Source: Synechocystis sp. PCC 6803 substr. PCC-P (lineage in GTDB: Bacteria; Cyanobacteriota; Cyanobacteriia; Cyanobacteriales; Microcystaceae). Taken from it: a DNA stretch of 32,000 bases. The DNA lies in contig NC_017039.1 in NCBI RefSeq assembly GCF_000284455.1, positions 2,010,001-2,042,000 on the forward strand, written 5' to 3'. Both the position numbers and the translations under genes were made by a program. The notes beneath the pieces were generated by a model. That model was not told the DNA's origin, did not search any database, and saw only the letters and a list, made by a program, of their open reading frames with translations. Positions 3,936-29,189 of the stretch are shown one piece after another (position 1 is the stretch's first letter; the number at the start of each line of letters is the position of its first letter).

Positions 3936-5846
3936 TCAAATTCTCTCAGCTAAAGTTAGCCAACGTTCTGTTTTTTGATCAATACTTTCACTTAAATTAG
4001 CTAAGCGTTCCGTCAGGTTTTGCAACTCGGTAAAATTGCCGTTGGAACTCTGGTAAAGTTGGGCTTCCAGTTGGGCTTTTTCTTCTTCCAATTGGGGAAT
4101 TTGTTGCTCAAGCTGTTCGTATTCCCGCTTTTCTTTATAGGAAAGTTTTTTCGAGCTACTATCTTGGCTAACTTTGGTCGTAACAGAAGCAACTGGTTGA
4201 GATTTTTTTAACTCAGTTTCTTCTTGGTTTGCTCTAACCTGTTCTGCTTTTTTATATTCCAAATACAAAGTGTAATTGCCGGGATATTGCCGTAGTTCTC
4301 CCTCTTCTTCAAAAGCAAAAATGGTTTCCACGGTGCGGTCGAGGAAATACCGGTCATGGGAAACCACAATGACGCAACCGTTAAAATCTTCCAGGTAATC
4401 TTCCAACACCGCCAGGGTTTGCACATCCAAATCGTTGGTAGGTTCGTCCAAAATTAAAACGTTGGGGGCTCGCATCAACACCCGCAGTAAAAATAAACGG
4501 CGCTTTTCTCCCCCGGATAACTTGGCAATGGGAGCAAATTGTTGATTGGGGGGAAATAAAAATCTTTCTAACATCTGCCCAGCGGTAATTACTTCGCCGT
4601 CGGTGGTTTTGATCAATTCCGCCACACTTTTGAGGTAATCAATTACCCGTTGATTAGGATTTAAACTCAGGTCATCGGAGTGTTGATCAAAATAACCAAA
4701 ATGAATGGTGCTACCAATGTCCACTGTGCCTTGGTCCGGCTCCAATCTGCCAGTGATCATATTCATTAAAGTGGATTTGCCCACGCCATTTTTGCCCACA
4801 ATTCCCACCCGATCGCCGGGGGTGAAAATATAGGAAAAATCTTTAATTAATTGTTTGTTTTCAAAGCCCTTGCTAATGTTTTCCAGCTCTACCACTTTTT
4901 TGCCAATGCGCCGCCCAGCCGTACTAATATCTACTTTTCCCGTCCCCGTTTTAAAGCTGGTCTCCTGCATATCCTGGATGCGGTCAATGCGGGCTTTTTG
5001 CTTAGTGCTCCGGGCTTTAGGCCCTCTTTTTAACCATTCCAATTCCCGCCGCAACACTCCCCGGTGTTTTTTCTGACTGCTCTGTTCCGATTCCTCTGCT
5101 TCCGCTTTTTTGGTCAGATAATAACCATAGTTACCGTTGTAGCTATACAGTTCTCCTTGGTCAATTTCCAAAATACGGTTCGTCACCCGGTCCAAAAAAT
5201 AGCGGTCGTGGGTAATTAATAACAATGCTCCCCGGAACCGTTGCAGGTAACTTTGTAGCCATTCCACCGAAAAAGCATCCAAATGGTTAGTGGGTTCGTC
5301 CATCAACAGCACATCCGGTTGGGACAACAATGCGGCGGCGATCGCCACCCGTTTACGGTAACCACCGGAAAGATCGCCTACTTTGGCATCGAGATGATCT
5401 ACCCCCAACTGGGTCAGAATAATTTTGGCTTGGGTTTCCAATTCCCAGGCCCCACTGGTTTCCATCTGGGCTGATAGGGCCGACAGTTGATTAAGCAATT
5501 GCTCGTCACTGCCCTGGTGGGCCAACTTGTCCGACAGCAGTTCGTATTGTTTAACTAATTGCCACTGTTCGCCACTGTCCACAAAAACCTGCTCCAACAC
5601 GGTGCGATCGCCGTCCATCTCTGGTTGTTGGGGTAAATAAACCACTTTGGCACTGCTGTTGCACCAATATTCTCCGCCATCAAAGGGTTCTAACCCGGCA
5701 ATCATTTTCAACAGGGTGGATTTACCGGAGCCATTAACCCCAATTAATCCCACCCGATCGCCTGGCTCGATGTTGAACGTAGCGTCCCGCAGAATTTCTT
5801 TAATACCAAAATCTTTGCGGAGGGATTGAACAGTGATGAGAGCCAT
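3936..5846 (-). CDS. ABC-F family ATPase (Uup/EttA-like, two ABC domains plus C-terminal coiled coil)
   Basis: It has two Walker A motifs (GVNGSGKST, GKNGVGKST), two LSGG signatures (LSGGYRKR, LSGGEKRR), no TM domain, and a charged coiled-coil tail. The ATG at 5846 (MALITVQSL) is preferred over the TTG at 5885. Confidence 0.9.
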   Translation of the reverse strand: MALITVQSLRKDFGIKEILRDATFNIEPGDRVGLIGVNGSGKSTLLKMIAGLEPFDGGEYWCNSSAKVVYLPQQPEMDGDRTVLEQVFVDSGEQWQLVKQYELLSDKLAHQGSDEQLLNQLSALSAQMETSGAWELETQAKIILTQLGVDHLDAKVGDLSGGYRKRVAIAAALLSQPDVLLMDEPTNHLDAFSVEWLQSYLQRFRGALLLITHDRYFLDRVTNRILEIDQGELYSYNGNYGYYLTKKAEAEESEQSSQKKHRGVLRRELEWLKRGPKARSTKQKARIDRIQDMQETSFKTGTGKVDISTAGRRIGKKVVELENISKGFENKQLIKDFSYIFTPGDRVGIVGKNGVGKSTLMNMITGRLEPDQGTVDIGSTIHFGYFDQHSDDLSLNPNQRVIDYLKSVAELIKTTDGEVITAGQMLERFLFPPNQQFAPIAKLSGGEKRRLFLLRVLMRAPNVLILDEPTNDLDVQTLAVLEDYLEDFNGCVIVVSHDRYFLDRTVETIFAFEEEGELRQYPGNYTLYLEYKKAEQVRANQEETELKKSQPVASVTTKVSQDSSSKKLSYKEKREYEQLEQQIPQLEEEKAQLEAQLYQSSNGNFTELQNLTERLANLSESIDQKTERWLTLAERI

Positions 5847-6131
5847 ACGGGGAAATTTACCAGGAAAAATTGAGCAGACTGGCAAATTACAAGCCTTGGT
5901 CTGGGGCCCATTTTATCGAAAAACTGGGTTTACCCCTGGTCTTCCACCATGATTTGCCCTAGCCAAAATCGAAAATGGCGCTCCATTGTTTAACCACCTG
6001 TTTAGGCATCCCTATGGGTCGTGTTTTTGCCGCCCTAAAAGGGATGTTATGGAGATCACAAAAATGAACGAAAATCCCCTAAAGTAGGGTAGCTTACGGC
6101 GACATCGCCCTTGGTCTCACGTTAGGAAGGC

Positions 6132-6992
6132 ATGGATCTATCACAGTTAATCTTTAATGGCATTGCGGTGGGAAGCATTATCGCCCTGGGGGCAGTGGGG
6201 TTGACCCTGACCTATGGCATTTTACGCCTGTCTAATTTTGCCCATGGTGATTTTATGACTTTGGCGGCCTATTTAACTTGGTGGGCCAACACCAGCGGCA
6301 TTAATTTGTGGTTATCCATGGCCCTGGGTTGTGTCGGTACCATCATTGCCATGTTCATTGGTGAATGGTTGCTCTGGAAGCCCATGCGGGCCCGGCGGGC
6401 TACGGCAACAACGCTGATCATTATTTCCATTGGTCTAGCCCTATTTCTCCGCAACGGCATCCTCTTGATCTGGGGTGGCAATAACCAAAATTACCGAGTG
6501 CCCATTGTCCCTGCCCAGGATTTTATGGGCATTAAATTTGAGTATTACCGTCTACTGGTCATTGCTATGGCGATCGCCGCCATGGTGGTGTTGCATTTGA
6601 TTTTGCAAAGGACGAAAGTGGGCAAAGCGATGCGGGCCGTGGCGGACAATGTTGATCTGGCGAAAGTATCCGGCATCAACGTGGAATGGGTAGTGATGTG
6701 GACCTGGGTAATGACCGCAGTGTTAACAGCCCTAGGAGGATCCATGTATGGCCTGATGACCACCCTGAAACCGAATATGGGGTGGTTTTTGATTTTGCCC
6801 ATGTTTGCTTCGGTGATTCTAGGGGGCATTGGTAATCCCTACGGGGCGATCGCCGGGGGGATAATTATTGGCGTAGCCCAGGAAGTGAGCGTGCCTTGGT
6901 TTGGCACCAGTTACAAAATGGGGGTGGCATTGCTGTTGATGATCATCATTTTGTTCATTCGTCCCCAAGGTTTGTTTAAAGGCACTCAATAA
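6132..6992 (+). CDS. natD: Branched-chain/neutral amino acid ABC transporter permease, LivH family (NatD of the Nat system)
   Basis: A 286-aa polytopic membrane protein with the LivH-type N-terminus QLIFNGIAVGSIIALGAVGLTLTYGILRLSNFAHGDF. The natD name comes from my memory of Synechocystis slr0949. Confidence 0.85.
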   Translation: MDLSQLIFNGIAVGSIIALGAVGLTLTYGILRLSNFAHGDFMTLAAYLTWWANTSGINLWLSMALGCVGTIIAMFIGEWLLWKPMRARRATATTLIIISIGLALFLRNGILLIWGGNNQNYRVPIVPAQDFMGIKFEYYRLLVIAMAIAAMVVLHLILQRTKVGKAMRAVADNVDLAKVSGINVEWVVMWTWVMTAVLTALGGSMYGLMTTLKPNMGWFLILPMFASVILGGIGNPYGAIAGGIIIGVAQEVSVPWFGTSYKMGVALLLMIIILFIRPQGLFKGTQ

Positions 6993-7816
6993 TGGCCAAA
7001 GCAGATAAACAACGACTGGATGCCCTTTTGGTAGCCAAAGGTTTATGTGAATCCAGAGCCCTGGCCCAGCGGTTGATCCGGGCGGGGGAAGTGAAAGTTA
7101 ATCAACAGTTGGTGGATAAACCAGGCACCCTGGTAACCATGGATGTGGCGGTGGAACTAGCCCAAAGGCCTCCCTACGTTTCCCGGGGAGGGGAAAAGTT
7201 AGCCAAGGCCCTAACGGAATTTGCCATTGATGTGACCGGTCGCATTTGTCTCGATGGGGGCATTTCCACTGGTGGCTTTACGGATTGTTTATTACAAAGG
7301 GGAGCAACGAAGGTTTACGGCGTGGATGTGGGTTACGGCCAGGTGGCTTGGAAATTGCGTCAGGATGACCGGGTGATTTTGCGGGAGCGGGCCAATTTTC
7401 GTTACCTCACGCCCCAGGATTTGTATGGGGATCAACCCTGGCCGGACTTGGGGGTGATGGATTTGTCCTTTATTTCCCTTACCAAAGTGATGGCTCCCCT
7501 CTGGTCTCTCCTCGCTCCTCCCCGGGAAGTGGTGTTATTGGTTAAGCCGCAATTTGAAGTGGGCAGGGAAAAAATTGGCAAAAAGGGAGTGGTGCGGGAT
7601 GCCCAAGCCCAGGCAGAGGCCATTGACCAAGTGTGGCGATCAGGGCAGAGCCTCGGTTGGCAGTTTAACGGTTTAACTTTTTCCCCTATCACCGGGCCGG
7701 CGGGCAATGTGGAATATTTACTCTGGCTCAGTCAATCCGCTGTTAACGCCTCTGCTCCAACGCTAGCTCAGTTGGGGGAAATTACCCAAAAAACGTTGGA
7801 TTCTTTTAGAAACTGA
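6992..7816 (+). CDS. tlyA: TlyA-family rRNA 2'-O-methyltransferase (S4 domain plus FtsJ-like MTase)
   Basis: It has an N-terminal S4 motif (RLDALLVAKGLCESRALAQRLIRAGEVKVN) and a SAM-binding motif (CLDGGISTGGFTDCLLQRGA). Its start overlaps the natD stop (TAATG at 6990-6994). Confidence 0.85.
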   Translation: MAKADKQRLDALLVAKGLCESRALAQRLIRAGEVKVNQQLVDKPGTLVTMDVAVELAQRPPYVSRGGEKLAKALTEFAIDVTGRICLDGGISTGGFTDCLLQRGATKVYGVDVGYGQVAWKLRQDDRVILRERANFRYLTPQDLYGDQPWPDLGVMDLSFISLTKVMAPLWSLLAPPREVVLLVKPQFEVGREKIGKKGVVRDAQAQAEAIDQVWRSGQSLGWQFNGLTFSPITGPAGNVEYLLWLSQSAVNASAPTLAQLGEITQKTLDSFRN

Positions 7817-7878
7817 ATTGGGATTTTGTGTAAATTGTAAAGAGATAATCAGAAATAATAGTCGAGTCGACAGCTATT

Positions 7879-8265
7879 TTATTCTCTACTAAGTAGGTAT
7901 TGTTCAGCACTTAATTTGAGCTTATCTCCTTTTAAAATCAACTGATCAATATAATCTTTTAATTCCATATAAGGCTGACGAGCATCTTTTTTATTACGTT
8001 CAATCATGCGCCTAGTTTCTGCACGAACTCGCCCTGCCCACTTATTTTTACCAAATATATCTAAACCAACGGAAACGATACTATCAGAATAGGCTTGGCT
8101 TGCGTCTTGATTAATTTGCCGAATGTGGGCGTTGATTTCCTTTTTAATAGCTCGTAGTTGCTTTTGGGCAAGATTAATTTGCTTGACTTGTAACTTTACG
8201 GATTGGGGAGAATCAAGCGTTAAGGTCAGTTGGTTGGCAATAGTTTGAATTTCTTGAATATTCAT
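7879..8265 (-). CDS. Hypothetical 128-aa protein, predicted all-helical with a coiled-coil N-terminus; last gene of the J-domain/TPR operon
   Basis: The ORF starts 15 nt downstream of the TPR gene's stop on the same strand. It is very AT-rich (20 G+C in 8041-8100 by hand count). I recognise no family. Confidence 0.6.
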   Translation of the reverse strand: MNIQEIQTIANQLTLTLDSPQSVKLQVKQINLAQKQLRAIKKEINAHIRQINQDASQAYSDSIVSVGLDIFGKNKWAGRVRAETRRMIERNKKDARQPYMELKDYIDQLILKGDKLKLSAEQYLLSRE

Positions 8266-8280
8266 GAGTTTATTAGAAAG

Positions 8281-9372
8281 TTAATCAATTATTGTTTGAG
8301 CTTTTTGTAAATCTTCTAGTGCCTTCTCATGATTTCCAAGTTCTCTAAATACTATACTTCGATTAACATATGCCGCTTTGCACTTAGAATCAATGACTAA
8401 CGCTTGATTATAATCATCTAAGGATTTTTGATGACAACCTAAATCGTAGTAAGCTACGCCTCTATTAATATAAGCCCAAACAAATGTTGGCTTAACAATT
8501 AAAGCATCAGAAAAATCTTTGATAGCCTTCTTAATCTGTCCCATCTTATAATAAGCAAGACCTCTATTATAAAATCCATTAAATAAATTACCATTTAAAG
8601 CCAATGATTGATCGAGGTAATCAATTGCAGACTGGTATTTTTCTAAGGAAAGGAAAGAAGAACCAAGGATATATAGTGTATTATCCTTATTAATGTGCAT
8701 TGGATTCAACCTTAGAGAAGTAAAACAATCTTCAATAGCTGCATCAAAATCACCCAAAAGATTATGTATTTCAGCCCGTAATATGTAAGAAGATACAAAA
8801 TTTGAATTTAGTTTTAAGGCTTCGTTGATTTTTTCAAGAGCATCTTGAGTATTACCCAGTAGTCTGTTAATAGCCCCTTGAATAGATAATTCAATGGGAT
8901 TATAACACTTGTTGATATCGGTCTTAATTTGTAGCAAATCATTGTAACATGAAAGAATAAAACTACTTGCTTGTAGCTCAGAGATTATAATAATTTTAGA
9001 ATAAAAAGCAATAACTGAATCTTGATAAAATTGCTTATGTTTTAGCCCCAGATATAAATCATTTTTGCTGTCTATATTATTACCTAGAAAAGAATGAGCA
9101 AAGCCCCTCAAAAAATAGGCTTCACAAAATCTATCATTAAATTCTAAAGCTTTAGTAAAAGAATCTATGGCATCAGATATATTTCCTAATATATATTGCT
9201 CTACTCCAAGTTTGAACAGATGCTCATGGTTGCTTGATTTTGTCAATATTTTTGTACAATCTTCGAATTTCTTTTCACTCTTTGATAAAGTGATTTTTTG
9301 GGTAAGCTGTAACCCCTTTTTGACCACATCAGAAGAATAACGAGCTAAATTTTGTTTGTAGTTATCAGTCAT
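8281..9372 (-). CDS. Tetratricopeptide-repeat protein (about 8 TPR units), no other recognisable domain
   Basis: It contains repeated TPR signatures, for example AIDSFTKALEFNDRFCEAYFLRG, AIKDFSDALIVKPTFVWAYINRGVAY and SLDDYNQALVIDSKCKAAYVNRS. It is 363 aa, has about 30 percent G+C in sampled lines, and starts 4 nt after the J-protein stop. Confidence 0.8.
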   Translation of the reverse strand: MTDNYKQNLARYSSDVVKKGLQLTQKITLSKSEKKFEDCTKILTKSSNHEHLFKLGVEQYILGNISDAIDSFTKALEFNDRFCEAYFLRGFAHSFLGNNIDSKNDLYLGLKHKQFYQDSVIAFYSKIIIISELQASSFILSCYNDLLQIKTDINKCYNPIELSIQGAINRLLGNTQDALEKINEALKLNSNFVSSYILRAEIHNLLGDFDAAIEDCFTSLRLNPMHINKDNTLYILGSSFLSLEKYQSAIDYLDQSLALNGNLFNGFYNRGLAYYKMGQIKKAIKDFSDALIVKPTFVWAYINRGVAYYDLGCHQKSLDDYNQALVIDSKCKAAYVNRSIVFRELGNHEKALEDLQKAQTIID

Positions 9373-9376
9373 GAGA

Positions 9377-10063
9377 TTAAACCCCTAATTGTTCTTTTAA
9401 ATCCTGTAAACGCTCTTGAGCCTCAGCAATTTGCTCATCCAGATGTTTAGCCATTTCTGTCAAAAGATCTTGACCAGACTGTCGTGCTTGCTCTACTTGC
9501 TCCATTAACTCAAAAAGCTCCGTTTGTCTTAACTCTGCCATATCTCGATGGATGGCTACTAACCGAGAACGACACTGGGCAATCTGACGAATAACCCGAA
9601 TTAACTCCGCTGCAACGCCTTCTCCTTGGACTGAATGAGGATCAGATTCCCAACTAGCTAAAATTTCCCGTAACCGTTGCTCATCGCCTTCTTCGTAGGC
9701 CTGATTTGCCGCGGCCATTAAATTTTGTCGTTTAGCCCTTTCCACCTCATCCGTTGCTAAATCTGGATGAACACGCTTTGCCACCTCTCGATATAGCTTT
9801 TTCAAACCATCCGACGGTTTAAAATTACGGGATGACTCCAAATAGTCCATGTACTCCGTAATCTGCGCTTCAATGCGTTCCAGTTCCGTATAGCGACTTC
9901 CGATCAGTCCTAAATACTGCTGTTCAAAACTATGTAACTCAGCTTGAAAAGTCGTCAATTTAAGCTCATTTTCCGCTAATTCTGACTCTAAAGTTTCAAG
10001 TTCAGCCTTTTTTGCAGTTAACTCTTCTTCTTCCGGACTTGTGTAGATGGTGAGGTCGTCCAT
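9377..10063 (-). CDS. Type III J-domain protein: central minimal J-domain flanked by coiled coils (I believe this is Sll0909 of PCC 6803)
   Basis: It has the HPD motif in LKKLYREVAKRVHPDLATDEVERAKRQNLMAAANQAYEEGDEQRL. It lacks a G/F region and a Zn finger. Both the N-terminal and C-terminal parts are heptad-rich and E/L/Q-rich. Confidence 0.8.
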   Translation of the reverse strand: MDDLTIYTSPEEEELTAKKAELETLESELAENELKLTTFQAELHSFEQQYLGLIGSRYTELERIEAQITEYMDYLESSRNFKPSDGLKKLYREVAKRVHPDLATDEVERAKRQNLMAAANQAYEEGDEQRLREILASWESDPHSVQGEGVAAELIRVIRQIAQCRSRLVAIHRDMAELRQTELFELMEQVEQARQSGQDLLTEMAKHLDEQIAEAQERLQDLKEQLGV

Positions 10064-10279
10064 TGTACTGACTGTTAACTTTAATGTTTTTATCCTAGCT
10101 TATTTATCAACTTTCATAAAGAGCTAAAATCAAAACCAGCTAGCCACTCTGGGGAATTTTGCAGAGCCGATCATCTCTAGACCTATCGTTGCGAATTTTC
10201 CTTTTGTACTGAGATTTCCCCAAAGTAAACATGGTAAGGTTTGAGACCGAGAATTTCAGCAGAGTTGACGGTCGGGTAG

Positions 10280-10972
10280 ATGCATTTACTAATTCCAGCG
10301 GCGGGTTCCGGCAAACGGATGGGGAGCGGTCACAATAAGTTACTTTTAAATGTTTTGGGGCAACCCCTGCTGAGTTGGACAGTGCAGGCGGCATTGGCAT
10401 CCCAGTCCATTGAGTGGATTGGCATCATGGGCCAACCCTACGATTTTCCAGCCTTTGAAGCTCTATTAACTCCCCTCCATAGCCCTAAACCAGTGCAGTT
10501 AATTGTGGGGGGAGATACCCGACAACAATCGGTTTTTAATGGCATCCAAGCTCTGCCCCCGGGGGCGAAATTTGTGTTAATCCACGACGGTGCCCGTTGT
10601 TTGGCTACGCCGGATTTGTTTGATCGTTGCACAGAGGCTCTCCAGCATTGCCAAGGATTAATTGCCGCCATGCCAGTGAAGGACACCATCAAAATAGTTA
10701 ACGCTGATGGTTGGATCACTGACACCCCCGATCGCCAAGGATTGTGGGGAGCCCAAACGCCCCAGGGTTTTGACGTGGCCCTGCTCAAAGCCTGCCATGA
10801 CAAAGGTAAACAGGAAGGTTGGGAAGTAACGGATGATGCGGCCCTGCTGGAAAAATGTGGGCAACCCGTGAAAATAGTGCCAGGGGAAGATACTAACTTG
10901 AAAATTACCACCCCCGTAGATTTGGCGATCGCCGAATTTATTTTGGGGCAGAGGTCGGCAAAATCCGCCTGA
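10280..10972 (+). CDS. ispD: 2-C-methyl-D-erythritol 4-phosphate cytidylyltransferase
   Basis: The N-terminus LLIPAAGSGKRMG and overall length (230 aa) fit IspD, as does the conserved VLIHDGARC motif. Confidence 0.9.
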   Translation: MHLLIPAAGSGKRMGSGHNKLLLNVLGQPLLSWTVQAALASQSIEWIGIMGQPYDFPAFEALLTPLHSPKPVQLIVGGDTRQQSVFNGIQALPPGAKFVLIHDGARCLATPDLFDRCTEALQHCQGLIAAMPVKDTIKIVNADGWITDTPDRQGLWGAQTPQGFDVALLKACHDKGKQEGWEVTDDAALLEKCGQPVKIVPGEDTNLKITTPVDLAIAEFILGQRSAKSA

Positions 10973-11055
10973 AAATAGGCAAATTTCGGGGTTCGGAAAG
11001 ATCAAGCTAGGATGGAAGGGACTTTGAGCCTAGCAATCCAAGGAGACTTTTATCC

Positions 11056-12099
11056 ATGACCGTTAGTGAGATTCATATTCCTAACTCTTTACTAGACCGG
11101 GATTGCACCACCCTTTCACGCCACGTACTCCAACAACTGAATAGCTTTGGGGCCGATGCCCAGGATTTGAGTGCCATCATGAACCGCATTGCCCTAGCGG
11201 GAAAACTGATTGCCCGTCGCCTGAGTCGAGCTGGGTTAATGGCCGATGTGTTGGGCTTCACTGGGGAAACCAACGTCCAGGGGGAATCGGTGAAAAAAAT
11301 GGACGTATTTGCCAATGATGTTTTTATTTCTGTCTTTAAGCAAAGTGGCTTGGTTTGTCGTCTGGCTTCGGAGGAGATGGAAAAACCCTACTATATTCCT
11401 GAAAATTGCCCCATTGGTCGCTATACTTTGCTGTACGACCCCATTGATGGTTCCTCCAACGTGGACATTAACCTCAACGTGGGTTCCATTTTTGCCATTC
11501 GGCAACAGGAAGGGGACGATCTAGACGGCAGTGCGTCAGATTTATTGGCTAACGGAGACAAGCAAATTGCTGCTGGTTATATCCTCTACGGCCCCTCCAC
11601 CATCCTGGTTTATTCCCTCGGCTCCGGAGTGCATAGCTTTATCCTCGATCCCAGTTTGGGGGAATTTATTTTAGCCCAGGAAAATATCCGCATTCCCAAC
11701 CACGGCCCCATTTACAGCACCAATGAAGGTAACTTTTGGCAATGGGATGAAGCCCTGAGGGATTACACCCGTTACGTCCATCGCCACGAAGGTTACACTG
11801 CCCGTTATAGCGGTGCTCTGGTGGGGGATATTCACCGGATTTTGATGCAAGGGGGAGTGTTTCTTTATCCTGGTACGGAAAAAAATCCCGACGGCAAATT
11901 GCGTTTGCTCTATGAAACTGCGCCGCTGGCCTTTTTGGTGGAACAGGCTGGGGGAAGGGCTAGTGACGGCCAAAAACGTTTACTGGACTTAATTCCTTCT
12001 AAATTACATCAGCGTACCCCCGCCATTATTGGCAGCGCAGAAGATGTGAAATTGGTGGAATCTTTCATCAGCGACCACAAACAACGGCAGGGTAATTAG
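11056..12099 (+). CDS. fbp: Fructose-1,6-bisphosphatase class I
   Basis: It has the FBPase motifs [24 protein letters not shown] and [21 protein letters not shown], and is 347 aa. Confidence 0.92.
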
Positions 12100-12140
12100 T
12101 TTACTTAATCACTGCAAATCGTTTGAGGTCTAGGAACGTC

Positions 12141-12255
12141 TTTTAAAAGCCCCCTAGCCCCCCAATTCTGGGGGGAATAGTGTTCAAAGTCCCCCAAATT
12201 TGCCGGAGCTTTAGTGAAGACATTTGGAGAGTGGATCATGACTTTTCAAACATAC
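12141..12255. repeat. MITE-like dispersed element, copy 2 (inverted relative to copy 1), with C5 (12150-12154), C6 (12158-12163) and G6 (12170-12175) runs
   Basis: See copy 1. It lies in the fbp-spp intergenic region and begins with TTTTAAAAGCCCCCTAGCCCCCCAATTCTGGGGGG. Confidence 0.6.
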
Positions 12256-12305
12256 TCTAACGCCGGAGATTCAACTTTGTTGGTAAATCTACATTGATCA
12301 ATCCT

Positions 12306-13040
12306 ATGCGACAGTTATTGCTAATTTCTGACCTGGACAATACCTGGGTCGGAGATCAACAAGCCCTGGAACATTTGCAAGAATATCTAGGCGATCGCCG
12401 GGGAAATTTTTATTTGGCCTATGCCACGGGGCGTTCCTACCATTCCGCGAGGGAGTTGCAAAAACAGGTGGGACTCATGGAACCGGACTATTGGCTCACC
12501 GCGGTGGGGAGTGAAATTTACCATCCAGAAGGCCTGGACCAACATTGGGCTGATTACCTCTCTGAGCATTGGCAACGGGATATCCTCCAGGCGATCGCCG
12601 ATGGTTTTGAGGCCTTAAAACCCCAATCTCCCTTGGAACAAAACCCATGGAAAATTAGCTATCATCTCGATCCCCAGGCTTGCCCCACCGTCATCGACCA
12701 ATTAACGGAGATGTTGAAGGAAACCGGCATCCCGGTGCAGGTGATTTTCAGCAGTGGCAAAGATGTGGATTTATTGCCCCAACGGAGTAACAAAGGTAAC
12801 GCCACCCAATATCTGCAACAACATTTAGCCATGGAGCCGTCTCAAACCCTGGTGTGTGGGGACTCCGGCAATGATATTGGCTTATTTGAAACTTCCGCTC
12901 GGGGTGTCATTGTCCGTAATGCCCAGCCGGAATTATTGCACTGGTATGACCAATGGGGGGATTCTCGTCATTATCGGGCCCAATCGAGCCATGCTGGCGC
13001 TATCCTAGAGGCGATCGCCCATTTCGATTTTTTGAGCTGA
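12306..13040 (+). CDS. spp: Sucrose-phosphate phosphatase (HAD superfamily)
   Basis: The sequence MRQLLLISDLDNTWVGDQQALEHL... matches my memory of the crystallised Synechocystis SPP (244 aa). It has the DxDxT HAD motif. The ATG at 12306 is preferred over the TTG at 12294. Confidence 0.93.
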   Translation: MRQLLLISDLDNTWVGDQQALEHLQEYLGDRRGNFYLAYATGRSYHSARELQKQVGLMEPDYWLTAVGSEIYHPEGLDQHWADYLSEHWQRDILQAIADGFEALKPQSPLEQNPWKISYHLDPQACPTVIDQLTEMLKETGIPVQVIFSSGKDVDLLPQRSNKGNATQYLQQHLAMEPSQTLVCGDSGNDIGLFETSARGVIVRNAQPELLHWYDQWGDSRHYRAQSSHAGAILEAIAHFDFLS

Positions 13041-17925: not shown

Positions 17926-19449
17926 ATGAAGCGAATTATCCTCGCCCTGTTGACGGTTATTTCCCTGGTGCCCTTTTTACTTTCCCTGGTGGGAAGCTTA
18001 GAAGAACCCCAAGTACAGTCTCAGCTACAACTTTCCCAAACCAATCTGTTGTTGCAAGCTTCGGCTTGGCAGGGGAAGGGGGAATCGGGAACATGGCGGG
18101 AAACCCTGCAAACAGCCCTATTGGAAAGTCAACCCCAACAGGGAGGGTTAAAACAGTACGAAATAGCAGTCCAGGAATTGACTGACTATCTAGACCGGCT
18201 CAAAAATCAACAGGCGACCCTGGAGACATCCCCCAATGTCAATCCGGCCCCAATCCAAGCAGTCATTGCCAAAAATCAAAAGACCCTAAACCAAATTCAA
18301 ATTAATTTGGGGTTGCTCCAATACGCTGAGAATCAGACGCAAAAATCCCTCGATACTTGGCAATCTGTAGTGAGCAACGGTGAGCCAAATGAGCAAGAAA
18401 TCGCCACCGTGCTGATTGCTCTACAACAAGCCGAACCCATCCCCTCCAATGCGGAAGCGGTTATTAATAGCCAATTAAAGGGATGGTTTCGTTGGCAGGG
18501 ACTGACCCAGCTTTATCGCCGCCAAGGTAATCTTGAAAGCCTCGATCAGGTTTGTGATACCCCCGCCTGTGGAGCGTTGCAAACAGAAGTGGAAAAGGCT
18601 AGCCAGCGGGCCCTGGTGAAATTAGCCCTACTCAACAGCTTGCCTTTGTTGGGAGGAGGCATCGGTGTTTTGCTGATGATTGGACTGTTATTGCAATGGG
18701 CTTTGGGTCGGGAAAAGGCAATTCTAGCTACTAACGCCAAAACCAGATGGGACACTCCCTGGAATTGGGAAACCACTTGGCAGGTGTTGGTGGTGGGTTT
18801 CTTTTTTCCCAGCCAGATTGTTTTGCCGTTGGTGGTGGGGGTGTTACCTCTGCCCATGGCGGATTTGTCATTGATGGGCAAAGCCTTCTACGTATTGGCC
18901 ACCTATGGGGCGATCGCCGCAGTGGGTTTGGGGTCTTTATTCGTCTCCCTAAAGGACTTTCGTCCCCTACCCCAGGATTGGTTTACCCTGCGTCCTAACT
19001 TCGGAGCCATTTTGTGGGGCTTGGGAGGCTACCTGGTGGCATTGCCATTGGTGGTGTTGGTGTCCTTAGTAAATCAAGAAATTTGGCAGGGCCAGGGGGG
19101 CAGTAATCCCTTGCTTTCCCTTGCTTTGGATTCCCAAAATTGGTTAGTGCTAGGAATTTTCTTTTTTACCGCTGCCGTTTTAGCGCCGGTGTTTGAAGAA
19201 ATTATCTTCCGGGGCTTTCTCCTACCAGCCCTAACCCGCTACTTTCCCGTTAGTGTAGCCATTATTCTCAGCAGTTTACTGTTTGCCATCGCCCATTTGA
19301 ATGTGTCGGAAATTTTACCTTTATTTGTTTTGGGCTCCATTCTCGGCCTTGTTTATAGCCGTTCCCGCAATCTTTTATCTTCGATGATTCTCCACAGTCT
19401 CTGGAATAGTGGAACATTGTTAAGCCTATTTATTTTGGGTGGCAGTTGA
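17926..19449 (+). CDS. CPBP-family (CAAX/Abi) intramembrane glutamic protease with a long N-terminal periplasmic/coiled region
   Basis: It has the CPBP motifs FEEIIFRGFLL, FAIAHL and ILHSLWN in the C-terminal polytopic part. The ATG at 17926 (MKRIILALL, signal-anchor-like) is preferred over 17860. Confidence 0.8.
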   Translation: MKRIILALLTVISLVPFLLSLVGSLEEPQVQSQLQLSQTNLLLQASAWQGKGESGTWRETLQTALLESQPQQGGLKQYEIAVQELTDYLDRLKNQQATLETSPNVNPAPIQAVIAKNQKTLNQIQINLGLLQYAENQTQKSLDTWQSVVSNGEPNEQEIATVLIALQQAEPIPSNAEAVINSQLKGWFRWQGLTQLYRRQGNLESLDQVCDTPACGALQTEVEKASQRALVKLALLNSLPLLGGGIGVLLMIGLLLQWALGREKAILATNAKTRWDTPWNWETTWQVLVVGFFFPSQIVLPLVVGVLPLPMADLSLMGKAFYVLATYGAIAAVGLGSLFVSLKDFRPLPQDWFTLRPNFGAILWGLGGYLVALPLVVLVSLVNQEIWQGQGGSNPLLSLALDSQNWLVLGIFFFTAAVLAPVFEEIIFRGFLLPALTRYFPVSVAIILSSLLFAIAHLNVSEILPLFVLGSILGLVYSRSRNLLSSMILHSLWNSGTLLSLFILGGS

Positions 19450-19561
19450 ATGCTGATAGTGCCCTGATTTTGAAAGTAAGATTCTAGAATGGTGCTGGCA
19501 GGCCGAATTTTCCTCTAGCCCCCTAACCTGTGGTGAGTCGCCAGTGGACTGGTGAGTTTTT

Positions 19562-20002
19562 ATGGACTGGCTTTTCTATTTGTTCTTAACAGCCGTTTTT
19601 TACGTTTACCGTTTAGTCAGCCTGAAATCGAGAACAGAGCAGGAACGCATCGGTTCAACGCCGGTGTTTTTCTCTACCCTCGGTTTTTTTGCCATTTTTG
19701 AATTTGTTTTTGCGGACTCTTTGTTTAGACTGCCACTATTTCATGTTTTAGGGCTAATTTTTTCCTTTATTTGTGCTTTTACCATTTATATTTACCTGCG
19801 GAATTTAAAAAAGGAGGTAGAAGTGATTTTCGAAAAATTAGTCAAACAAAGTCAGGGCAAAGTGAGCGTACTGACTTTTATGCAACGTACTAACATGACT
19901 AAAGATGAAGCCATGGATTACTTAGACGCCAAATTACGCCAGCTCCCTGGCATCACCTACGAAACCCTGGGCAATATTTATTATGAATTTGACCGTTGGT
20001 AA
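19562..20002 (+). CDS. Hypothetical low-GC protein: three predicted TM helices plus a soluble C-terminal domain of about 60 aa
   Basis: It is a 146-aa ORF. Sampled 60-nt lines give 33-35 percent G+C. It contains no HIP1 and I recognise no family. An internal in-frame GTG at 19823 is preceded by AAGGAGG. Confidence 0.5.
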   Translation: MDWLFYLFLTAVFYVYRLVSLKSRTEQERIGSTPVFFSTLGFFAIFEFVFADSLFRLPLFHVLGLIFSFICAFTIYIYLRNLKKEVEVIFEKLVKQSQGKVSVLTFMQRTNMTKDEAMDYLDAKLRQLPGITYETLGNIYYEFDRW

Positions 20003-20028
20003 GGGCTTCTGCGGTGGCCATCTAGACT

Positions 20029-21501
20029 TCAAGTCTGGGCCCAGGAACCGTGCAGGGGATAGGGAATGTGATGCTTTAACTTCAAAGTGGCGATCGCCGG
20101 AGCAGTAATGTCCTGAGCATCAAGAATCACTAGTTCGGAACGGTGCAAATCAGCTTTATAAATCAAGCAGAGCAACCAACCATCATCTTCAGCCACGCCA
20201 CCGGGTCGGGGCACAAAAATAGGTTCCCCGGCAAAACCATGGGGGGCAAAGGAACGTAGAGTTTCAGTGCCGGACTCTAGATCTACTTTGAGAATGGCCT
20301 GAAGGGGAGCATTGCCTGTGCTATGGTGTGCGGCTCCCATGTAAACATAGCGATATGGACGGCCAACCTGCTGGGGATGGACAACGGGAAACTCGCAACA
20401 ACGACTAACCATTAACTGTTTTTCCACCGTGGCTGCTGCGGGATCAATGGTGAAACGCCATAACTGTCCGGGATCTAAATTATCGAAATTCGTACTACGA
20501 AAATCCCCATCGGTGTCTACCTGGGGCAGGGAATTGTAACAAATGGAATCGAGGATTATTTTGCCATTTTCCTCAAAAGCGTTGGCATGGTGAAAAACAA
20601 AGCCTGCCTGTACCGGAATTCTTTTTATTTCTCCACCGTCCCTAGGAACGAGAATAATTTGAGCAGGTTTATCGGGATGAAATTGCACACATTCCCCTGC
20701 TCCTCGCAAACCGAAAAGGTAGGGTAACCCGTTGAGAGTAACGTTATTTTGCAGAAAAATGGCGTAATGGGGCGTGATCGCAAAATCATGAATAAAAGCA
20801 AAACCAGGAAAAGTTTCAGTTTTTTGCCGCAACAATTTACCCTGGGGGTCTAGCTCTAACAGGGTGAGGGTACTGCTCAAGCTGGATTTAATTGAAAAGG
20901 TCACATAGCAGGGTTGGCCCCCATCAAAAGTTGAAGCCGGATCAATGCGGGGATGGGCCGACAGGGGTTGCCCTTCCGCAAGAATGCCGCCCAAATCATC
21001 CAACCCAATGGTTGCTAAGTTTGATGGTTCCAAGCGATGGGGTTGTCCCCCTTCCCATAGGGCCAAGAGGCGATCGCCCCAGTAGGTAATGTTGGTGTTG
21101 GCAATGTTTTTTAGCCGTAAGTCAAAGATAGTTTTGAGCCAGCCCCCCGCCGGTTGGGAACCAAAGACGCCCCGATAGATCATTTTTCCCGCTTTTTGCT
21201 CTTCCACGTAACCCTGGGTGCGGACAAATTTGCTCTGGAAATGTACTCGACCGTCCCCAGGAAATTTAAAGGCTGTCACCATGCCGTCCCCGTCAAAGGG
21301 ATGCTTCAAAGGGCGATCGCCAATTTCCAATAATCCAGGGCCGTTGCGATAGAGCGTTCCCTGGAGGTCTGGGGGTATGCTCCCTTCCACGTCTTCGACC
21401 CAATAATCCCACTCCTGGGGCTGGGACTGGTAACCTCTCAGCCAATCCTGCGGACTGTAGGAGCGCTGCGATGGGGAACTGGTTGGGGGGGAAGTGACCA
21501 T
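20029..21501 (-). CDS. aco: Apocarotenoid-15,15'-oxygenase (carotenoid cleavage dioxygenase family, RPE65 fold)
   Basis: The sequence MVTSPPTSSPSQRSYSPQDW... matches my memory of Synechocystis ACO/Diox1 (sll1541, 490 aa). The His ligand contexts are present (LSAHPRID, FIHDF, FHHANAF, HHIPYPLHG). The ATG at 21501 is preferred over the TTG at 21507. Confidence 0.93.
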   Translation of the reverse strand: MVTSPPTSSPSQRSYSPQDWLRGYQSQPQEWDYWVEDVEGSIPPDLQGTLYRNGPGLLEIGDRPLKHPFDGDGMVTAFKFPGDGRVHFQSKFVRTQGYVEEQKAGKMIYRGVFGSQPAGGWLKTIFDLRLKNIANTNITYWGDRLLALWEGGQPHRLEPSNLATIGLDDLGGILAEGQPLSAHPRIDPASTFDGGQPCYVTFSIKSSLSSTLTLLELDPQGKLLRQKTETFPGFAFIHDFAITPHYAIFLQNNVTLNGLPYLFGLRGAGECVQFHPDKPAQIILVPRDGGEIKRIPVQAGFVFHHANAFEENGKIILDSICYNSLPQVDTDGDFRSTNFDNLDPGQLWRFTIDPAAATVEKQLMVSRCCEFPVVHPQQVGRPYRYVYMGAAHHSTGNAPLQAILKVDLESGTETLRSFAPHGFAGEPIFVPRPGGVAEDDGWLLCLIYKADLHRSELVILDAQDITAPAIATLKLKHHIPYPLHGSWAQT

Positions 21502-28558: not shown

Positions 28559-28577
28559 ATTATTTAAGGTGTTAACC

Positions 28578-29189
28578 ATGGGTTGGTCTAACATACTCAG
28601 TTTGTTTGGGGCGATGTTGATCCTAGCGGCTCTTCCCAGCTTGAGTGTGTTAACCGTTTCGAGTAAAAGTGCCAGTGGTGGTTTTATTCATGGCTTATTT
28701 GCGGCCCTTGGCGTTGTTTTAGGCGATATTATTTTTATTCTCATTGCTCTCTGGGGTTTAGCTTTTTTACGGGGGGCAATGGGCGATTTTTTTGTCATTC
28801 TTAAATATATCAGCGGCATTTATTTAAGTTGGCTGGGAATTAACACTATCCGAGCCAAAGTTAACAATCAAAGTCTGGCCAAGGTAGATGTCAAATCCCT
28901 CTCTTCTAGTTTTTCCGCCGGATTGCTCATAACTTTAGCCGATCAAAAAGCTGTCCTGTTTTACCTGGGCTTTTTACCCACTTTTGTTGATGTCAATAAT
29001 ATTGCCTATCTTGATATCGCAGTCATAATCTTAACCGCCATTCTGACGGTGGGAGGTGTAAAAATATTTTATGCTTTTCTTGCCCACCGCTCAGGGCTAT
29101 TAATCAGTAGACAAAATAAACGGATAATGAATTATTTAGCCGGCGCTCTAATGATTTCCGTTGGTGTATTTTTGCTTATTTCAAGCTAG
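28578..29189 (+). CDS. LysE/RhtB-family amino-acid exporter
   Basis: It is about 200 aa with six hydrophobic segments and the LysE-type N-terminus (LILAALPSLSVLTV). The ATG at 28578 is preferred and the GTG at 28569 is an alternative. Confidence 0.75.
   Translation: MGWSNILSLFGAMLILAALPSLSVLTVSSKSASGGFIHGLFAALGVVLGDIIFILIALWGLAFLRGAMGDFFVILKYISGIYLSWLGINTIRAKVNNQSLAKVDVKSLSSSFSAGLLITLADQKAVLFYLGFLPTFVDVNNIAYLDIAVIILTAILTVGGVKIFYAFLAHRSGLLISRQNKRIMNYLAGALMISVGVFLLISS

Follow-up and report, generated by a model that had tools for sequence, protein, structure and literature searches.

A conserved gene pair encoding a class-C J-domain protein and a motif-bearing partner in Synechocystis sp. PCC 6803 and related loci

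Introduction

Class-C J-domain proteins decide which targets Hsp70 acts on, and most of the bacterial ones have no known client. Several described systems place a J-protein together with a partner or an additional module. In the DnaJ-TPR class-C proteins DNAJC7/Tpr2 and DNAJC3/p58IPK, the J domain is combined with an array of tetratricopeptide repeats (TPRs) that selects the Hsp70 cargo. The cbpA-cbpM locus of E. coli is a two-gene operon in which the protein encoded by the second gene has the J-protein of the same operon as its specific target, and in the chloroplasts of Chlamydomonas, the HSP70B-CDJ2-VIPP1 system involves a specialised J-protein and a small coiled-coil hairpin protein. 'DnaJ-TPR' is counted among the major class-C architectures (PMC10410713), and in Synechocystis the class-C proteins Sll1011, Sll1384 and Sll1666 contain a J domain but lack the G/F and Zn-finger regions (PMC7609799). 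Here we analyze three adjacent genes of Synechocystis sp. PCC 6803, sll0909, sll0910 and sll0911, whose products are referred to as J, M and S, respectively. They lie in a stretch of 32,000 nucleotides (nt) (NC_017039.1, positions 2,010,001 to 2,042,000), which is called the window in its full length and to which all coordinates refer.

The three open reading frames (ORFs) match annotated genes exactly, with the annotations "DnaJ family molecular chaperone" for sll0909, "tetratricopeptide repeat protein" for sll0910 and "hypothetical" for sll0911. A preliminary description of this DNA, made from the sequence, had presented them as an operon in a compositional island and as a candidate chaperone-coupled module. 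Our comparison with related loci reveals that the trio is a conserved uncharacterised module, which is neither a recent import nor a recognisable defence system.

Results

J is paired with a repeat protein that bears a short N-terminal motif

Nearly all of the related loci that we examined, which come from Cyanobacteriota and Acidobacteriota, have a partner gene directly beside the gene encoding J; the trio is widespread and not peculiar to this genome. In the cyanobacterial loci, the gene after J always encodes a repeat protein, yet not one and the same protein. Most of these partners are TPR proteins, and WD40 repeats are combined with TPRs in four loci (L009, L019, L039 and L040). In 43 acidobacterial-type loci, J is followed at a distance of -3 to 77 nt by one conserved beta-propeller partner of ~385 amino acids (aa), and the surrounding tsaD-, galU- and holA-like genes, as read off their translations, presumably have housekeeping functions. 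In Granulicella, the genes for J and a Sel1 protein overlap by 11 nt. In addition, J and TPRs are naturally fused in two database proteins of 396 aa each (P0054 and P0103).

M consists largely of TPRs (TPR_1, E=4e-48, seven stretches; TPR end-of-group domain NF047558, E=1e-15). The conserved element of sll0910 is, however, not this TPR body but a short motif near the N-terminus, the only constant feature of the partners. The motif has a length of ~15 residues and can be written in short as [KR]YSSxLIK[KR]GL or RSAALVARGLRDL. It reads [KR]YSSxLIK[KR]GLxLA in cyanobacteria (Table 1 gives the version of Sll0910) and A[LV]RS[AS]ALVARGLRDL in acidobacterial-type partners. Its position is fixed, with a start at residues 18-25 for the majority of partners and at residue 11-13 for Sll0910. 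Counted by a loose pattern, the motif is present in 69 of the 81 J-adjacent partners, most of the misses being near-matches, as compared with 9 of 1384 other ORFs of the same loci (Fisher p ~4e-95). The bodies behind the motif are TPR, WD40 or PD40 beta-propeller, LRR, Sel1, REC+GGDEF or unassigned domains. Furthermore, the motif is kept in the acidobacterial J loci, where S is absent; it follows J even without S and is therefore tied to J rather than to S.

These observations suggest a reading that we prefer and to which we give about an even chance, namely that the trio is a dedicated class-C J-protein module coupling tag-bearing partners to Hsp70 (DnaK). In such a module, the N-terminal motif would dock M onto the non-J helices of J, and the J domain would then trigger ATP hydrolysis in a DnaK. 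Hsp70 would thereby receive the cargo of the M repeat domain, or M itself, and remodel, assemble or disassemble it, with S as a possible cyanobacterial accessory subunit, regulator or client.

A second reading, which we consider possible but clearly less probable, treats M as the client and not as an adaptor. J would hand the tag-bearing protein to DnaK and thereby control its on/off or oligomeric state, in parallel with the regulation of sigma-32, RepA and VIPP1 by Hsp70, and the N-terminal motif would be a built-in Hsp70/J recognition site. The fixed position of the motif near the N-terminus is in keeping with this role, as is the presence of signalling enzymes among the partners, e.g., the REC+GGDEF proteins in L081 and L113. 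The motif itself, a hydrophobic L-I/V-x-R/K-G-L segment with basic residues, is one that we take to resemble a DnaK-type binding segment. However, the majority of the partners consist purely of protein-binding repeats (TPR, WD40, LRR and Sel1), as is typical of adaptors, and the free swapping of repeat bodies beside a constant J fits changing targets better than it fits one regulated client.

Two further partner proteins have unusual sequences. At L066:5759-7576, a 605-aa TPR partner after J is built of near-identical 34-residue units (AISDYTKAIEINPGYAEAYNNRG...), which indicates a very recent repeat expansion; inside sll0910, no tandem DNA repeats were found. On pBPHY01 of Paraburkholderia phymatum (L124:3009-4697), a 562-aa protein encoded upstream of J starts with a tag-like N-terminus (SNKSGSLIARGIAAL) and contains two copies of a Cys-rich domain with a poly-Ala run between them; its first 309 residues, which cover the first Cys-rich copy, have no Pfam match.

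J is conserved beyond its J domain

sll0909 is one of the four expressed class-C DnaJs of Synechocystis (PMC7609799; PMC9948308), and Sll0909 has been cloned and assayed among seven DnaJs (PMC9948308). It is predicted to be a class-C J-domain protein that is conserved over its full length and has an intact HPD motif. The J domain is flanked by a long N-terminal helix (residues 10-78) and a C-terminal helical region (residues 150-226). The HPD residues, H99, P100 and D101, are invariant in 30 cyanobacterial homologs. When Cyanobacteriota, Acidobacteriota and Paraburkholderia are compared, P10, E11, F46, Y50, G55, K88, R92, K96, HPD, R156 and R159 are invariant, among which K88, R92 and K96 contribute to the basic character of helix II. 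Of the 41 PDB matches listed for a profile of the 30 homologs, 40 are J-domain chains, with 2ej7 as the best match (E=1.6e-5), aligned at positions 71-145 and covering helices I-IV.

The AlphaFold2 model of J (predicted local distance difference test score, pLDDT, 78) has high confidence in the helices on either side of the J domain. A Foldseek search of the PDB with the whole model yielded coiled-coil look-alikes only, all non-significant. The non-J residues P10, E11, F46, Y50, G55, R156 and R159 are invariant and therefore point to a putative specific binding surface instead of a generic coiled coil. J had been described earlier as a minimal HPD J domain embedded in coiled coil; the HPD motif is indeed present.

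Homologs of J comprise 835 cyanobacterial-type and at least 1292 acidobacterial-type entries, the latter, where named, being "Candidatus Acidiferrales/Acidoferrales". The full architecture is kept in this acidobacterial group, in Granulicella and on a Paraburkholderia megaplasmid. In one 362-aa homolog (P0023), the J-domain segment is duplicated internally, with VAKCIHPDLATDENDR...LYRL occurring twice.

The trio is a probable chromosomal operon in a fixed slot

The genes sll0909-sll0910-sll0911 constitute a probable chromosomal operon in a fixed slot (Table 1). As the preliminary description had stated, the three ORFs are co-directional minus-strand ORFs, J being separated from M by 4 nt and M from S by 15 nt, and are placed between the plus-strand tlyA and ispD genes. 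The order ispD, J-M-S, tlyA-natD-abcF recurs in Synechocystis PCC 7339 (L040), Synechocystis PCC 7338 (L042) and the metagenome contig L041, and the proteins in these three loci are 93-95% (J) and 91-98% (S) identical to those of PCC 6803. A scan of both gaps detected no terminator-like site in either of them. Promoter and terminator scans gave counts not above those in shuffled sequence, and the region upstream of sll0909 lacks a convincing sigma-70 consensus.

Table 1. Features of the sll0909-sll0910-sll0911 locus, with base composition of the ORFs. Coordinates refer to the window; the Pfam labels of the TlyA-type and IspD flanks were taken from an orthologous locus. GC3, G+C content at third codon positions.
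Feature	Coordinates	Strand	Description	GC	GC3	z (GC3)
sll0909 (J)	9377-10063	minus	228-aa predicted class-C J-domain protein	0.439	0.368	-2.9
J domain of J	9644-9856	minus	residues ~70-140; HPD at 9761-9769			
sll0910 (M)	8281-9372	minus	363-aa TPR protein, hypervariable partner gene	0.307	0.223	-5.7
N-terminal partner motif of M	9304-9342	minus	R11-L23, RYSSDVVKKGLQL			
sll0911 (S)	7879-8265	minus	128-aa helical-hairpin protein	0.365	0.289	-4.4
Intergenic region between divergent sll0909 and ispD	10064-10279		216 nt, presumed operon promoter region			
TlyA-type gene	6992-7816	plus	S4+FtsJ, flank on the S side			
ispD	10280-10972	plus	flank beyond J			
31 other ORFs of the window				0.493±0.036	0.517±0.052	

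Expression data are available from a lexA-disrupted strain, in which sll0909, sll0910 and sll0911 are increased 8.9-, 6.8- and 5.9-fold at one density and 13.5-, 10.4- and 7.5-fold at the other (PMC4759255). The joint rise of the three genes would fit a single transcript. In the same mutant, several more clusters of 'unknown protein' genes are de-repressed, among them sll0775-0778, sll1239-1241 and sll0443-0445 (PMC4759255, Table 1).

M differs between sister strains at the precision of its ORF

Alignment of the DNA of PCC 6803 and PCC 7339 reveals 84-90% identity in the flanks up to position 9370, at the M start codon, and again from position 8282, at the M stop codon. The block in between that cannot be aligned is exactly the M ORF, with 1.09 kb in PCC 6803 and 2.59 kb in PCC 7339. 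M is a TPR protein of 363 aa in PCC 6803, a TPR+WD40 protein of 861 aa in PCC 7339 and L041, and an all-TPR protein of 468 aa in PCC 7338. Between PCC 7339 and PCC 7338, J is 100% and S is 96% identical, while M is 65% identical over 389 residues and then continues into different domains. M of PCC 6803 is 27-35% identical to M of its sister strains and is closest to M of L043 (47% over the full length), while J of L043 is only 71% identical. M has a GC content of 0.30-0.34 in every strain compared. M therefore turns over by allele or domain replacement and is exchanged as a cassette between conserved J and S, even among sister strains. Such ORF-precise turnover between strains with identical J is unusual evolution for a chaperone component.

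The variability of M raises the question of a conflict or defence module, which we regard as improbable. In such a module, the hypervariable M would sense invader proteins and J would form the connection to Hsp70, with chaperone hijack or an Abi-like (abortive infection) shutdown as examples of an output and S as the effector or regulator. The ORF-precise replacement of M in near-identical strains would be expected of such a sensor, along with a similarity pattern of M that conflicts with those of J and S; TPR, WD40 and LRR match the repeat classes of known immune sensors. The family-wide AT-rich composition and an operon that is kept low and de-repressed in the lexA mutant would also agree with defence. 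However, the searches returned nothing positive for the Abi-like switch that had been proposed beyond the hypervariability of M. Scans against Pfam, NCBIfam, PHROGs and PADLOC found no catalytic domain in J, M or S, in line with the preliminary description of the TPR and 128-aa proteins; domains that could serve as an effector (nuclease, protease, NTPase, TIR or pore-forming) are absent from all three proteins. The best hits in PADLOC-DB 2.0 are coiled-coil and TPR noise (LmuB at E=0.009, Cmr1 to a helix at E=1e-4 and a TPR model to 27 residues at E=2.6e-4), with no meaningful component match. J has no relatives in 50,697 phage records; in IMG/VR, S has no match and J matches a single generic J-domain fragment. 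Furthermore, the locus keeps its place on the chromosome amid housekeeping genes, the purifying conservation of J and S is strong, and the acidobacterial partner is one conserved family in a housekeeping-looking neighbourhood, not a hypervariable one.

A related proposal, to which we give equally little credence, is that J-M, with or without S, is an Hsp70-coupled surveillance or specificity system with M as a swappable TPR, WD40 or LRR sensor cassette. If this were true, each strain would steer DnaK to different foreign or self proteins, and the module would be a chaperone-based counterpart of the hypervariable-repeat sensors in STAND-type immune systems.

Low GC3 is shared by orthologs and does not mark a recent island

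The low-GC dip over the trio is borne out by our measurements, with a GC content of 0.30-0.34 over positions 7801-9300 and ~0.48-0.53 in the flanks (600-nt windows) and GC3 z scores between -2.9 and -5.7. This composition and the HIP1-free stretch could mark a recently acquired island, i.e., a low-GC block imported into PCC 6803, and it would fit such an import that the M allele of PCC 6803 is closest to that of the more distant organism L043. For the whole trio, this explanation is largely refuted, and we consider it very improbable. GC3 is below that of the neighbours in related cyanobacterial loci for M in 12 of 12 cases (median -0.18), for J in 13 of 14 (-0.09) and for S in 28 of 31 (-0.06). 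The low GC3 is thus a gene-family property across cyanobacteria and no mark of recent import. Among the features of a genomic island, only atypical composition was observed; the slot is occupied in PCC 7339, PCC 7338 and L041, and the flanking DNA aligns right to the boundaries of the M ORF, which alone has been replaced. In addition, no mobility signal accompanies the locus: the window contains no tRNA, no integrase-like ORF is among those listed for positions 5500-12500, and no mobility gene is among the genes called around the trio in the orthologous loci. A compositional island in the sense of a recent acquisition is therefore not upheld.

The HIP1-free stretch noticed earlier does exist, as none of the 31 HIP1 sites in the window lies between positions 6853 and 10925. 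As an unusual feature it does not stand: a largest gap of at least 4079 bp occurs in 39% of random placements of 31 sites (P≈0.39), and the window contains a second gap of 3436 bp. For these reasons, the gap adds no independent evidence and was dropped as an argument for an island. A GC3 gradient, sought as the trace of a recombination tract, is weak from M into J (0.43 to 0.32) and absent in S.

Outside the trio, the ORFs of the window with the lowest GC are 19562-20002 on the plus strand (GC 0.39, GC3 0.44) and 28569-29189 on the plus strand (GC 0.41, GC3 0.40). The most extreme AT skew of the window, -0.27 to -0.36 in 600-nt windows, is located at positions 18600-20100.

S usually accompanies the J-M pair in cyanobacteria

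S has 289 homologs, which are 70-98% identical among those listed; the named ones are all cyanobacterial except for one metagenome-assembled genome (MAG) labelled Candidatus Gracilibacteria. AlphaFold2 predicts a hairpin (pLDDT 91) of helices 20-57 and 74-127, with a GKxKWAGRxRAETRR segment, which is basic and invariant, as the connection between them. S has no family match above noise in Pfam, NCBIfam, PHROGs or PADLOC, ten distant relatives of S had no Pfam match, and Foldseek against the PDB returned non-significant coiled-coil or hairpin look-alikes only (UvsY, PspA and PI3K iSH2).

J is present within 2.5 kb of S in 16 of 38 genome loci. The order J-M-S is seen in about ten loci, S is convergent with M-J (S><M-J) in six, and the order is S-J-M in Leptolyngbya NK1-12. 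In cyanobacteria, S usually accompanies the J-M pair. More distant S-like proteins form 234 clusters, some with fusions to SH3_3, Zn-ribbon or TPR domains; some multi-domain relatives have a transmembrane-like tail, and the extra domains give no clear functional pointer. Four of the distant relatives (P0286, P0290, P0295 and P0297) are encoded on contigs of 0.7-2.3 kb, which are uninformative for neighbours.

Several individual loci deviate from these arrangements. S-like domains are fused to N-terminal TPRs in P0373 (270 aa) and to a bacterial SH3_3 domain in P0250 (511 aa). In Chroococcopsis gigantea SAG 12.99, a contig labelled 'plasmid unnamed2' (L029) encodes an S homolog with 66% identity and no J within 8 kb. 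In a Merismopediaceae MAG contig (L037:5608-6387), J (query residues 2-204) runs into S (residues 68-125) with no M between them, and this junction is either a deletion fusing J to S or an assembly artefact. In Microcystis (L003, L034/L047), the position of M is taken by fragmented WD40- or TPR-type ORFs of 91, 156 and 223 aa, and in L003, the 8 kb upstream of S contain no detectable J; some Microcystis genomes thus seem to have a decayed module.

Discussion

Our analysis favors a J-protein module that would couple tag-bearing partners to DnaK, and several results weigh against it. With the single J sequence, the Pfam DnaJ model scores 19.6 bits (E=0.001), below its cut-off of 27.8 bits. The AlphaFold2 model of J contains helices at 85-98, 106-124 and 128-139, but pLDDT is <50 over residues 97-131. 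No linked Hsp70 gene is found among the conserved neighbours of the loci. The LexA motif TTTTGWTNAC (PMC4759255) has no match within one mismatch in the presumed promoter region, and the induction in the lexA mutant may therefore be indirect. In ten Nostoc loci, S is located away from J-M, between genes that we take from their sequences to be pheT and a YciI-like gene, and Nostoc-type J-M pairs are found elsewhere, e.g., in L049. A broad hidden Markov model of S has no match in the acidobacterial J loci, so that S is no part of the module there, and the membership of S is lineage-specific. Finally, a housekeeping chaperone role explains neither the low GC3 throughout the family nor the replacement of M at the precision of its ORF.

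The preliminary description had further treated the three genes as a functionally linked trio. The adjacency of J and its partner, the J-TPR fusions, the presence of S in three gene orders and the joint rise in the lexA mutant support this linkage.

The J family spans at least two phyla with >2000 database entries, its partner gene lies next door and is recognisable by a 15-residue tag, and sll0909 is expressed in a tractable model organism. If the tag docks on J, the clients or adaptors of an orphan co-chaperone could be found by a simple rule, and the tag would be a portable handle for directing proteins to DnaK. The "unknown protein" genes sll0910 and sll0911 can now be annotated as linked to sll0909.

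Comparison with the systems described above places the locus as follows. By analogy, the nearest known logic would be the DnaJ-TPR class-C architecture, with CbpM-type operon partners as a looser parallel. In contrast to the DnaJ-TPR proteins, J and the repeat protein are encoded by two ORFs that lie 4 nt apart, and the one-polypeptide form occurs only in P0054 and P0103. Furthermore, the repeat body is interchangeable (TPR, WD40, LRR, Sel1 and REC-GGDEF), the apparent link to J is the short N-terminal motif, and long conserved helices are present on both sides of the J domain. With a bacterial DnaK, the TPRs would not be expected to bind an EEVD tail. As compared with cbpA-cbpM, no sequence similarity to CbpM was seen in the Pfam and NCBIfam scans; CbpA is class-B-like with a substrate-binding C-terminus, unlike sll0909, and CbpM is one conserved family and not a tagged variable-domain protein. 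With respect to the HSP70B-CDJ2-VIPP1 system, S superposes loosely on the PspA hairpin 4whe (TM-score 0.62-0.66) at a non-significant Foldseek E of 1.8, and helical hairpins match in this way non-specifically. S has no PspA_IM30 Pfam match even at E up to 1, and a relation to the PspA/IM30/ESCRT-III hairpin is a lead only. The class-C proteins Sll1011, Sll1384 and Sll1666 carry their extra domains in the same polypeptide (PMC9948308), and the literature that could be searched describes no partner gene or motif for them. Compared with all of these systems, the new features of the locus are a conserved pair of J and a motif-bearing partner, a partner-specific tag, a cyanobacterial third gene and a cassette-like turnover of the partner.

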